From a virus (lineage: Duplodnaviria; Heunggongvirae; Uroviricota; Caudoviricetes), in IMG/VR virus record IMGVR_UViG_2671181134_000016: a stretch of 40,220 nt of DNA; one strand, written 5' to 3'. The notes below the pieces were generated by a model. That model did no database searches. It was not told where the DNA came from and saw nothing but the letters and a program-made list of their open reading frames with translations. Below are positions 4,623 through 8,653 of this stretch, piece after piece. The number at the start of each line of letters is the position of its first letter. Position 1 is the first letter of the stretch. Both the position numbers and the translations under genes were made by a program.

Positions 4623-5315
4623 TTAATTGTGTCGCTTAAGGGTTTGTGACTGGCTGATTAAGACCTTTCCAAAGACCATAAACCGGTGTTCATTTTCGCT
4701 GGTAATTCCCCATTCACGGTAAATCTGGTTATCAGAAATCACCAGTAGTTTGTCAGGTATCATTTGCAGTCGTTTGACATAAATTTTATCATCAAAACCA
4801 AATACATAGATACCATCTCCATCAAACTGATTGATACTGACATCAACGAAGATGAGATCTCCTGGCTCAATGGTTGGACACATACTGTCCCCACGAACGT
4901 TGATAACTTTAATGTGATTGGCTGGCCGTCCGCCAAACATCGATACAGCATTATCAGTTCTGTATTCAATGGCATGAATCACATCAATGACATCACCGCC
5001 CTGGATAAGGCCATTTCCCGCACTGGCACTGACATCCAGCATTTCAATACGGAATACATCCTTCACCTGCGCAACATCCTCACTAATACTGTTTTTACAT
5101 ACAGTATTACTTTTGAAGTCTGAGGTAAAGAGATCAGCAATATCAACACCTAAGCTCTTGGCAATATTACTCAGGGCTTGTTCAGTGAATTGTTTCTGCT
5201 TACCTGTTTCCAGGCGTGAGATATTCGCCGCATCCACTCCTATTGCTTCAGCGAGATCGGCGATTTTCATGTTCTTCGCCTGGCGAAGTTGTCTGACTCG
5301 GTTTCCTATGTTCAT
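4623..5315 (-). CDS. cI: CI-type prophage repressor (N-terminal HTH, C-terminal S24 LexA-like peptidase)
   Basis: XRE-type HTH (KIADLAEAIGVDAANISRLETGK) and S24 motif (VRGDSMCPTIEPGDLIFVD ... KRL); divergent from the cro-like gene. Confidence 0.9.
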   Translation of the reverse strand: MNIGNRVRQLRQAKNMKIADLAEAIGVDAANISRLETGKQKQFTEQALSNIAKSLGVDIADLFTSDFKSNTVCKNSISEDVAQVKDVFRIEMLDVSASAGNGLIQGGDVIDVIHAIEYRTDNAVSMFGGRPANHIKVINVRGDSMCPTIEPGDLIFVDVSINQFDGDGIYVFGFDDKIYVKRLQMIPDKLLVISDNQIYREWGITSENEHRFMVFGKVLISQSQTLKRHN

Positions 5316-5673: not shown

Positions 5674-6223
5674 TCATCACTGGAAAGTGGAAAAACAGCC
5701 TGAGTGGTACGTGAAAGCTGTCAGAAAAACTATCGCGGCGTTGCCGGGGGGTTACGCTGAAGCTGCTGAGTGGCTGGATGTAACAGAGAACGCATTATTT
5801 AACCGCCTTCGTGCCGATGGCGATCAGATTTTCCCGCTGGGATGGGCAATGATTTTACAACGTGCTGGTGGCACTCACTTCATTGCTGACGCTGTGGCGC
5901 AGTCTGCAAATGGCGTCTTTGTGTCTCTTCCTGACGTCGAGGATGTGGACAATGCCGATATTAACCAGCGTTTACTGGAAGTCATTGAACAGATCGGCAG
6001 TTATTCAAAACAGATTCGTTCGGCAATCGAAGACGGTGTAGTGGAACCGCATGAGAAGACAGCAATTAACGACGAGCTGTACCTCTCAATTTCGAAGCTG
6101 CAGGAGCATGCAGCACTTGTCTACAAAATTTTTTGCGTTTCAGAAAGTAATGACGCCCGCGAGTGTGCAGCTCCGGGCGTCGTGGCGTCGATTGCTTCTG
6201 GTTGTGGAGAAACTAACGCATGA
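5666..6223 (+). CDS. YmfL-like / CII-position regulatory protein
   Basis: 185 aa, GTG start with AGGAGG Shine-Dalgarno; position after cro; size matches remembered e14 YmfL. Confidence 0.55.
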
Positions 6224-6558
6224 ACAGTTTAACAACACACTACCGTCGCTCGCAACTGATTGCGCTTCCTGTACCGGGTGGAAAAGCGAAGGTGGAGTAT
6301 TGCTATGCAGTAAATGTACCAGGTGACAGGGAAATTGTAACCCACAGCTTTGCTGAGTGGGCTGTGGGTGATTTCAACCGGCAGAAGGAGACAGTCCTTT
6401 GCGACAAGTTAACCGCTGGTTCAAAGATCACTACGGAGTGCCCGTCAGAGTCATTCGTTGGGAGCCGGAAACACAACGGGTTATCTACATCCGTGAAGGC
6501 TATGAGCATGAGTGCTTCAGCCCGCTCGAACAGTTTCGTCGTAAATTCAGGGAAATAG
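6220..6558 (+). CDS. YmfM-like hypothetical protein
   Basis: 112 aa; ATGA overlap with the preceding stop (translational coupling). Confidence 0.5.
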
Positions 6559-6567
6559 AGGTCGGTC

Positions 6568-7509
6568 ATGAGCACTAAATTAACCGGCTATGTATGGGAT
6601 GGTTGCGCTGCGTCAGGCATGAAATTATCCAGCGTGGCAATTATGGCCCGCCTGGCTGATTTCAGTAATGACGAAGGTGTGTGCTGGCCATCAATTGAAA
6701 CTATTGCCCGTCAGATTGGCGCGGGGATGAGTACCGTCAGAACGGCTATCGCACGGCTGGAAGTAGAAGGCTGGTTAACGCGTAAGGCGCGTCGCCAGGG
6801 TAACCGCAATGCGTCGAATGTTTATCAGCTTAACGTTGCGAAGCTTCAGGCAGCGGCATTTTCTCAACTGTCAGATTCTGACCCGTCAAAATCTGACGCA
6901 TCAAAATCTGACCCGTCAAAATTTGATGCGTCGAAATCTGGCAAAAAAGCGGGTTTTCACCCGTCAGAATCTGGCGGGGATCCGTCAGTAAAATCAAAAC
7001 ATGATCCGTCAGATAAAAAACCTTCTCGTCCGGACGCTTCGCAACCGGACACGCAGACGGCTGAACAGGATTTTTTAACTCGCCATCCTGATGCGGTTGT
7101 ATTCAGCCCTAAAAAGCGCCAGTGGGGGACGCAGGATGATTTGACCTGCGCACAGTGGCTCTGGAAAAAAATCATCGCCCTGTACGAGCAGGCTGCCGAA
7201 TGTGACGGCGAGGTGGTTCGTCCCAAAGAACCGAACTGGACAGCCTGGGCAAACGAAATTCGCCTGATGTGTGTGCAGGATGGTCGTACTCACAAACAAA
7301 TCTGCGAGATGTACAGCCGCGTCAGCCGCGATCCGTTCTGGTGCCGTAACGTGCTCAGCCCGTCGAAGCTGCGGGAAAAATGGGATGAGCTTTCCCTGCG
7401 CTTATCGCCGTCCGTCAGCACGTACACCGAAAAACGCGAAGACCCGTACTTCAAAGCCAGTTACGACAACGTGGACTACAGCCAGATCCCGGCAGGATTC
7501 AGGGGGTGA
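6568..7509 (+). CDS. Replication initiation protein (O-like, N-terminal winged-helix domain) with an internal iteron-encoded acidic/serine repeat linker
   Basis: N-terminal HTH-like replication-protein segment; internal SDSDPSKSDASKSDPSKFDASKS repeats encoded by DNA iterons; AGAGG before the ATG. Confidence 0.75.
   Translation: MSTKLTGYVWDGCAASGMKLSSVAIMARLADFSNDEGVCWPSIETIARQIGAGMSTVRTAIARLEVEGWLTRKARRQGNRNASNVYQLNVAKLQAAAFSQLSDSDPSKSDASKSDPSKFDASKSGKKAGFHPSESGGDPSVKSKHDPSDKKPSRPDASQPDTQTAEQDFLTRHPDAVVFSPKKRQWGTQDDLTCAQWLWKKIIALYEQAAECDGEVVRPKEPNWTAWANEIRLMCVQDGRTHKQICEMYSRVSRDPFWCRNVLSPSKLREKWDELSLRLSPSVSTYTEKREDPYFKASYDNVDYSQIPAGFRG
6871..7015. repeat. Iteron array (putative origin of replication) inside the replication initiator gene, followed by an A-rich stretch
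   Basis: At least 6 direct repeats of the form CCGTCA(A/G)AATCTG / GCATCAAAATCTG, then aaaatcaaaacatgatccgtcagataaaaaa. Confidence 0.6.
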
Positions 7510-7511
7510 TC

Positions 7512-8000
7512 ATGAGTCTATTAAATGACGTTCAGAAATTCATTGAAGCCCATCCGGGGTGTACTTCCGGAGACATTGCAGATGCTTTTGCTGGTTACTC
7601 ACGGCAGCGCGTTCTGCAGTCAGCAAGCAAGTTACGTCAGAGTGGGCGTGTGGCTCACCGTTGTGAAGGGGATACACGCAGACATTTCCCGCGCCTGACT
7701 GAGAGAGCGCAGGAGCCGGAACCACAACCAGTTCGTGAAACCAGACCTGTGCGCAATTTCTATGTCGGCACTAACGATCCCCAGGTGATTTTGTGCCTGA
7801 CCCGCCAGGCGGAAGAACTGGAGTCCAGGGGCTTATTTCGTCGTGCTGCAACCGTGTGGATGGCGGCATTCCGTGAAAGCCACTCCCAGCCAGAACGAAA
7901 CAATTTTCTGGCGCGTCGTGAGCGGTGCTTACGGAAAAGCAGCAAGCGCGCTGCATCGGGTGAAGAGTGGTATCTGTCAGGGAATTACGTGGGGGCTTAA
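7512..8000 (+). CDS. Hypothetical DNA-binding protein, PerC-like C-terminal motif (AEELESRGLFRRAATVWMAAF)
   Basis: ATG at 7512 preceded by GGGGG; stop overlaps next start (TAATG). Confidence 0.5.
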   Translation: MSLLNDVQKFIEAHPGCTSGDIADAFAGYSRQRVLQSASKLRQSGRVAHRCEGDTRRHFPRLTERAQEPEPQPVRETRPVRNFYVGTNDPQVILCLTRQAEELESRGLFRRAATVWMAAFRESHSQPERNNFLARRERCLRKSSKRAASGEEWYLSGNYVGA

Positions 8001-8653
8001 TGAGTAATAAATATTGCCAGGCGCTGGTGGAGCTGCGGAACAAACCAGCCCATGAACTGAAGGAAGTGGGCGATCAGTGGCGCACGCCGGACAACATTTT
8101 CTGGGGAATTAACACCCTGTTTGGCCCGTTTGTTCTGGATCTGTTTACTGATGGTGATAACGCCAAATGTGCCGCTTATTACACTGCGGAAGACAACGCG
8201 CTGGCGCATGACTGGTCAGAACGTCTTGCGGAGCTTAAAGGTGCTGCCTTTGGTAATCCCCCATACAGCCGCGCCAGTCAGCATGAGGGGCAATACATCA
8301 CCGGCATGCGTTACATCATGAAGCATGCCAGTGCCATGCGTGATAAAGGCGGGCGCTATGTTTTCCTGATCAAAGCTGCCACCAGCGAAGTGTGGTGGCC
8401 GGAAGATGCAGATCATATTGCTTTTATTCGCGGGCGTATTGGTTTTGAACTGCCTGCCTGGTTTATCCCGAAAGATGAGAAGCAGGTGCCGACAGGCGCT
8501 TTCTTCGCTGGTGCTATTGCTGTTTTCGACAAGACCTGGAAGGGACCGGCAATCAGCTACATCGGGCGCGATGAACTTGAGGCATGTGGTGAGGCGTTTC
8601 TGGCGCAGGTTCGCCAGCAGGCGGAAAAACTGGTCAGGGAGATGGCGGCATGA
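8000..8653 (+). CDS. Phage DNA N6-adenine methyltransferase (Dam-type, orphan)
   Basis: NPPY catalytic motif (GNPPYSRAS); ATG at 8000 coupled to upstream stop. Confidence 0.85.
   Translation: MSNKYCQALVELRNKPAHELKEVGDQWRTPDNIFWGINTLFGPFVLDLFTDGDNAKCAAYYTAEDNALAHDWSERLAELKGAAFGNPPYSRASQHEGQYITGMRYIMKHASAMRDKGGRYVFLIKAATSEVWWPEDADHIAFIRGRIGFELPAWFIPKDEKQVPTGAFFAGAIAVFDKTWKGPAISYIGRDELEACGEAFLAQVRQQAEKLVREMAA

Follow-up and report, generated by a model that had tools for sequence, protein, structure and literature searches.

In phage lambda, as in 434, 21 and 933W/P27, the replication origin lies within the initiator gene: dyad-symmetric direct repeats occupy its linker-coding middle, and an A+T-rich tract comes after them (PMC7466680). 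Lambda carries four such iterons at O codons 117-145, and the N-terminal domain (N-domain) of its initiator forms one specificity module with the origin. Here we describe a repeat array and its downstream flank at 6868-7050 of a 40,220-nucleotide stretch of DNA from a Caudoviricetes virus (IMG/VR record IMGVR_UViG_2671181134_000016), the whole of which is referred to as the window. The window represents an SfIV/SfII-type lambdoid prophage, and the element lies where its replication initiator gene (6568-7509, plus strand) codes for a flexible linker between the two domains of the protein. We put the probability that 6868-7050 is the vegetative replication origin of the SfIV/SfII/CPS-53-type lambdoid prophage at roughly 0.8.

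Iterons are also familiar from theta plasmids. In the origins of pSC101, R6K and RK2 and in P1 oriR (Rep_3, WH1-WH2 initiators), initiator-binding direct repeats stand beside an A+T-rich unwinding element. P1 oriR, like oriC, has GATC sites within the unwinding region too. In theta plasmids the iterons are located outside the rep gene, usually with a spacing of about 22 bp, and are accompanied by DnaA boxes. In contrast, the array in the window is inside the gene and has a 15-bp spacing, and the initiator does not belong to the Rep_3 family (Pfam gives HTH_36). Furthermore, DnaA boxes are not enriched in the window (14 one-mismatch matches, 9.2 expected), the nearest one-mismatch box being at 6481, about 390 bp upstream of the array. 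A plasmid-type iteron origin was rejected on the basis of the HTH_36 domain, the intragenic array and the lack of DnaA-box enrichment.

Six 15-bp repeats within an O-like initiator gene

The array begins with five abutting 15-bp units (6868-6942), each with a 13-bp near-palindrome GTCAnAaTCTGAC: unit 1 (6868-6882, CTGTCAGATTCTGAC), unit 2 (6883-6897, CCGTCAAAATCTGAC), unit 3 (6898-6912, GCATCAAAATCTGAC), unit 4 (6913-6927, CCGTCAAAATTTGAT) and unit 5 (6928-6942, GCGTCGAAATCTGGC). An 18-bp spacer (6943-6960, AAAAAAGCGGGTTTTCAC), whose 3' part (TTT-CAC) is a conserved half unit, leads to unit 6 (6961-6975, CCGTCAGAATCTGGC). The unit core CAGAaTCTG is palindromic. Unit 1 contains a perfect 13-bp palindrome (GTCAGATTCTGAC), and unit 6, the most conserved copy, has a perfect 9-bp palindromic core (CAGAATCTG).

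An earlier note, made from the letters of this DNA alone, had claimed at least six direct repeats of 13-15 bp in the initiator gene, and the counts bear it out. The 15-mer, with up to three mismatches allowed, has nine matches in the window (1.14 expected), a number reached in 0 of 100 dinucleotide shuffles. Eight of the nine fall in the repeat region, and there is no second motif cluster elsewhere in the window. Tandem Repeats Finder reports a period of 15 (4.3 copies, score 86) and a period of 30 (score 100), the strongest tandem repeat of the 40-kb window. As the note had also read them, the repeats encode a linker: units 1-6 are in frame with the 313-amino-acid (aa) open reading frame (ORF), cover codons 101-136 and translate as SDSDPSKSDASKSDPSKFDASKS, between the HTH_36 domain (aa 23-70) and a lambda O-like C-terminal domain (C-domain, aa 166-277). 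Promoter and terminator scans gave nothing that exceeded shuffle expectation and had a bearing on the array. The hairpin-like CGGGTGAAAACCCG on the minus strand (6950-6963) is not kept as a hairpin in most homologues. A further CCGTCAG half-site at 6708 was rejected because the codons beneath it are not frozen among homologues, and those at 6442, 6734 and 7412 were treated as chance.

The host gene (942 bp) encodes a replication initiator, as had been supposed. The protein matches PHROG 391 ('replication initiation O-like', E = 2e-135), and the region coding for its N-domain (6568-6861, plus strand) specifies a winged helix of the HTH_36 family (Pfam, E = 2.8e-10). Its C-domain (7063-7398, plus strand) is homologous to the C-domain of lambda O, as detected by tblastn and BLASTP: tblastn gives 39% identity to O of lambda, 434, 21 and 933W, and a pairwise BLASTP comparison of the initiator with lambda O gives E = 8e-26. 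A sequence search against the PDB returned weak MarR/PaaX winged-helix matches for the N-domain and no match for the C-terminal 51 residues. An AlphaFold2 model made without an alignment had a mean predicted local distance difference test score (pLDDT) of 41 and was unusable. The HTH_36 N-domain is presumably the iteron-binding domain. A match to the same family in lambda O has been reported with HHpred by Brezellec et al. (PMC5509034).

In the protein alignment, the lambda iteron codons face the repeat codons of the window, about 30 codons before the common C-domain, and the array is thus positionally equivalent to ori-lambda. To this extent the lambda arrangement, with the origin inside gene O, which the earlier note had recognized, is confirmed. 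Copy number varies in both types, with four versus six iterons in lambda and Shiga toxin (Stx) phages and 1-10 in the window type. Unlike ori-lambda, the window has an unrelated core sequence and a tract with two GATC-containing boxes.

Selection on the DNA and inheritance with the N-terminal domain

Conservation was assessed in 80 loci from different Enterobacterales species that were picked solely by N-domain similarity (aa 1-98, 61-99% identity). Phage homologues were added, and 83 loci were analysed. The codon tabulation was anchored by a protein motif alone (DP[SLQ][VL]), so DNA criteria were kept out of the selection. In all 83 loci the units directly follow the winged helix, as a contiguous array of 1-10 copies (mode 5).

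Unit 6 and its flanks form a block (window 6955-7011) in which the codons are frozen: TTT-SAC-CCG-YCA-GAA-TCT-GGS-GGG-GAT-CCG-TCA-GTA-AAW-TCA-...-GAT-CCA-TCA. The conserved codons include TTT (77/77), TCT (76/78), GAT (83/83), GTA (81/81), TCA (75/75), the second GAT (72/72) and CCA (74/79), and in unit 6 GAA occurs 70 times and GAG never. Where the residue changes, the third base does not follow: the YCA codon of unit 6 is TCA in 41 loci, CCA in 38 and GCA in three, with a third-position A in 82 of 83, and the SAC codon of the spacer, found in 77 of 83 loci, encodes Asp (GAC, 40) or His (CAC, 37). In conserved-residue columns the major codon accounts for a fraction of 0.89 (median 0.97) in 6955-7011, whereas the N-domains of these genes give 0.52 (Mann-Whitney p = 2e-6).

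The array itself shows the same bias. Within the array region, as delimited by protein sequence, 83% of Ser codons are TCA or TCT, against 27% in the remainder of the gene (p = 2e-157), and TCA and TCT alternate strictly. Lys is AAA in 97% versus 64% elsewhere. Per unit, the two Ser positions are TCA in 353 of 381 and TCT in 263 of 325 cases, counts that are biased because these units were picked by DNA similarity. Free positions are interleaved with the frozen ones (at one Gly, for example, GGC, GGG, GGA and GGT are all found), a pattern that recent horizontal spread of the segment could not have produced. Since synonymous sites are frozen while residues vary, and the synonymous sites of the N-domain are randomised, selection acts on the DNA and not on the linker peptide.

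Directly downstream of the iterons is a candidate unwinding element, an A-rich tract of about 40 bp (6979-7020) with two GATCCGTCAG(W)AAA boxes 24 bp apart. The boxes form a second direct repeat, GATCCGTCAGTAAAA (6979-6993) and GATCCGTCAGATAAA (7003-7017), that is absent from the earlier description. The A-rich stretch that had been described there exists, and at 32.5% G+C the segment 6980-7019 is the lowest 40-bp value across 6300-7700 and the lowest in the gene. The A+T enrichment is modest, however (about 67% as read off the sequence by eye), and on this point the claim was overstated. Each box holds one Dam site (GATC at 6979-6982 and 7003-7006). The two GATCs are conserved in 83/83 and at least 72/83 loci, with GAT codons in 83/83 and 72/72, followed by CCR. 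In E. coli OkiPb01688, a natural clean 24-bp deletion, aligned to 6979-7002, takes out exactly one GATCCGTCAG box, presumably through recombination between the direct repeats.

The tract is followed by a G+C-rich segment (7021-7050) that is both the right border of the conserved DNA module and a mosaic recombination joint. Codon constraint persists to about 7050 (TGT 45/45; CCG 27 and CAG 26, with a third-position G in 53/53; GAC 53/53). Most homologues have GGTTGCnnnGCAACC at 7027-7050, a 6+6 dyad to the right of the A-rich tract whose third positions are frozen. The version in the window, GGACGCTTCGCAACC, is partly degenerate. In lambda, too, an inverted repeat lies to the right of the AT-rich tract.

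Beyond this border the genes diverge. Three unrelated C-domain types stand behind the element, namely 57 'ITDQAKQVL', 18 lambda O-C and 7 Proteus/EKP1, and there are 18 downstream gene types, including PerC-like (26), Dam-like (20), DnaC-like (8) and lambda P-like (4) genes. The mosaic joints are located at the right border: phiNP has DNA in common with the window up to gene nucleotide 479 (window 7046), and mEp460_4F5 from gene nucleotide 443 (window 7010). The latter matches the window in the DNA of its C-terminal half, yet carries another N-domain together with other repeats. Such pairing of element and N-domain is what one would predict for a DNA-binding domain together with the sites it recognizes. 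As such a domain and its sites have to evolve in step, the N-domain and the putative origin (6568 to about 7050) are passed on as a single block, and in this the window resembles ori-lambda.

The module is common in E. coli, being present in 2010 of 5426 complete genomes (37%). In the K-12 prophage CPS-53 (KpLE1), the yfdO pseudogene, a homologue of the initiator gene annotated as 'missing N-terminus', matches from gene nucleotide 234 (window 6801-7050, 99% identity) and has lost none of the six units and neither box. Behind it stand the PerC-like yfdN and a truncated methylase, yfdM, so that yfdO-yfdN-yfdM is the same module. With the N-terminus of its initiator missing, the CPS-53 repeat region would be an orphan origin remnant.

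A related group of initiators shows a comparable layout. Those of SfV, Sp5/Xuzhou21-type Stx phages, Klebsiella ST13-OXA48phi12.5, Vibrio D67 and Aggregatibacter S1249 have N-domains homologous to that of the window (hhalign probability 99.4%, 33% identity), and they carry tandem dyad-symmetric repeats of their own, in frame and directly after the N-domain. The SfV initiator also shares the C-terminal tail of the window protein. Unlike the window, these genes have three to five copies of repeats that are unrelated to CAGAATCTG, and a different DNA-conserved box, CACTCTTTTGAACCAGTCAATGAACC, follows the repeats in place of the GATCCGTCAG boxes. A scan of IMG/VR with the SfV-group N-domain returned 80 near-identical copies, which added no diversity for covariation. 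We also observed that a box AGA-ACC-AGT-CAC-TCT-TTT-GAA-CCA-GTC-AAT-GAA-CC (protein RTSHSFEPVNEP) is nearly identical in DNA sequence in six loci from genera that differ greatly in base composition, those of SfV, Salmonella SF6, Xuzhou21-Stx2a, Klebsiella ST13-OXA48phi12.5, Vibrio D67 and Aggregatibacter S1249 (L006-L010 and L012). This suggests that the post-repeat box of the SfV group is another DNA-level element.

A candidate replication origin and its alternatives

We infer from these features how the segment could work as an origin, by analogy with the lambda model (PMC7466680). Dimers of the HTH_36 N-domain would bind the dyad-symmetric sites (core CAGAaTCTG), that is, the five abutting units and the better conserved sixth. 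The resulting nucleoprotein complex would destabilise the neighbouring A-rich tract, in which the two GATCCGTCAG boxes lie. The lambda O-C-type C-domain, and possibly a DnaT-like tail at the end of the protein, would then bring in the host DnaB helicase, while C-domains and downstream genes would be exchanged through recombination at the right border.

Several points weigh against an origin of this kind. Lambda units are about 19 bp long at a spacing of 20-24 bp, and the repeats of the SfV group are spaced by 21-24 bp, whereas the 15-bp units of the window abut, which would place neighbouring sites about 150 degrees apart round the helix (by arithmetic, at about 10.5 bp per turn). A profile comparison of the N-domain with that of lambda O found no match, the profiles being shallow (five sequences against one). 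The A-rich tract is only moderately unstable, the least stable 40-mer of the gene (6987-7026) ranking in the top 7% of the whole window. In lambda the P gene follows, but in the window no P-type loader follows the initiator, and here the earlier comparison with lambda is incomplete; nor does the window encode a P, DnaC-like or primase homologue anywhere. For this reason the individual steps of the lambda pathway cannot simply be carried over. The codon constraint proves that there is a cis-acting function and leaves unspecified which one. Finally, no origin is mentioned in the paper on the SfIV genome, and full-text literature searches for the repeat sequences and for an SfIV or SfV origin found nothing relevant.

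The repeats could instead be a cis-regulatory array, made up of operators that autoregulate the initiator operon or of sites for the product of the upstream DUF4222 gene, a PerC-like protein or a host factor. Palindromic sites are typical of operators, a DNA-level constraint gives a cis function without naming it, and candidate regulators are close by, with DUF4222 directly 5' of the initiator in 66 of 83 loci and a PerC-like regulator next in 26. However, the element is also kept in the 17 loci in which no adjacent DUF4222 copy was detected and in the 57 that have no PerC-like gene immediately downstream. The array is homologous in position to ori-lambda and is followed by an A-rich tract, as known origins are, and operators in a coding linker, remote from promoter-like sites, would be unusual. 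We consider a purely regulatory array improbable, although the repeats may serve both as an origin and for autoregulation.

A structured RNA, or a site for partition, packaging or recombination, is a distinctly poorer candidate. The palindromic repeats are able to fold, and the array has one sub-threshold Rfam match, but that match (mir-5880, 30.7 bits against a gathering score of 97) occurs on both strands and is a palindrome artefact. The motif has no second cluster in the window, and partition or packaging sites are not expected to travel with the DNA-binding domain of an initiator.

There is also little chance that the repeats are simply a low-complexity protein linker (SDxSK pentapeptide) produced by slippage, their likeness at the DNA level being a by-product of recent duplication. 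The units are indeed in frame and variable in copy number, Ser/Asp-rich linkers are common, and the linker was modelled as coil, with very low confidence. Against this, synonymous positions are frozen over the 83 loci while residues change (Ser/Pro/Ala at YCA, Asp/His at SAC), and the two serines within a unit each have a fixed codon of their own (TCA versus TCT). Every unit is palindromic, which coding does not require, and the non-repeated block 6955-7011 is just as frozen.

Least credible is a constraint from an overlapping gene, either the 60-aa 'LTRQNL' ORF in the +2 frame of the repeats (6809-6991, plus strand), which the earlier note had rightly taken for spurious, or a 55-aa minus-strand ORF (6830-6997). 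Both ORFs exist, some variable positions (T/C at 6964, A/G at position 7 of the unit) would be silent in the +2 frame, and 56 of 83 loci have no stop in the -3 frame throughout the region. However, the +2 frame stops inside the frozen block in every locus and the frozen codons run on past the stop. A +2 ORF that begins with ATG and spans at least 40 aa occurs in only 41 of the 83, and a start codon and length conserved in all homologues were looked for and not found. The -3 frame is interrupted in 27, neither ORF has a credible family match (in PHROG for the 'LTRQNL' ORF), and the T-rich minus strand is stop-poor from composition alone.

Helicase loading and the prophage setting

With an initiator and no loader gene of its own, the phage appears to have a single-gene replication module. 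Some relatives with other C-domains do carry a lambda P homologue (L052, E = 2e-47) or a DnaC-like gene. The initiator ends in the tail SQIPAGFRG (7480-7506, plus strand), identical in eight of nine residues to the extreme C-terminus of E. coli DnaT (SQIPPGFRG), which probably explains the annotations as 'primosomal protein I'. The last 76 nucleotides of the gene (7434-7509) are a separate mosaic module with 97-99% DNA identity among otherwise different initiators, such as those of SfV, mEp460, cdtI and Stx2 phages.

We tentatively propose, as an idea more likely to be wrong than right, that the tail mimics the DnaT C-terminus and plugs into the host DnaT/PriA-DnaC-DnaB route, so that no phage loader would be needed, or else that the GATC boxes make firing Dam-dependent. 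If the tail is such a mimic, it could be a portable recruitment module that is swapped among otherwise unrelated initiators, a speculation prompted by its sequence distribution. How DnaT itself recruits DnaB-DnaC is unknown (PMC13377028), and the link between the tail and DnaB recruitment is therefore speculative. A role for methylation of the GATC boxes is possible independently of the DnaT-mimic idea, and the methyltransferase could come from the phage's own Dam-type gene (7967-8653), which lies a short way downstream and has counterparts in many relatives.

The initiator gene is 99% identical to those of SfIV, SfII and several E. coli phages. The order of the early region is a cI-like repressor gene (4623-5315, minus strand), a cro-like gene, a CP76/cII-like gene, a 112-aa ORF, DUF4222 and the initiator, followed by a PerC-like gene, the Dam methylase, a LexA-like gene and RusA. 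Next to the initiator (7506-8000 region), on its 3' side, is the gene for a 164-aa protein that is PerC-like in its C-terminal half and homologous to K-12 yfdN. The small DUF4222 gene (6399-6578, plus strand; Pfam E = 6e-19) overlaps the start of the initiator. DUF4222 is a conserved companion of this HTH_36 initiator type and may act as a co-factor. It also overlaps the 112-aa ORF (6220-6558, phrog_1170) by 160 nucleotides in a different frame, with family matches for both. DUF4222 is annotated in E. coli genomes by the Prokaryotic Genome Annotation Pipeline (PGAP), whereas the SfIV record annotates the 112-aa ORF only.

The SfIV, SfII, SfV and E. coli records that we inspected contain no origin feature, and they label the initiator only as 'helix-turn-helix domain-containing protein', 'primosomal protein' or 'replication protein O'. 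The element represents a lambda-type arrangement in a different branch of O-like initiators. Specialists would hardly find this unexpected, but the element has good support and is widespread. It would provide a precise origin annotation for one of the commonest prophage replicons of E. coli and Shigella, including the serotype-converting phages SfII and SfIV. The combination of an absent loader gene and a DnaT-like tail raises the question of how single-gene replication modules recruit DnaB. Furthermore, the locus is an unusually clean case of a DNA element overprinted on a coding linker, and its synonymous-site signature indicates at single-nucleotide resolution which bases matter. A search for the same signature could reveal origins in the initiator genes of other phages and help to prevent spurious ORF calls there.

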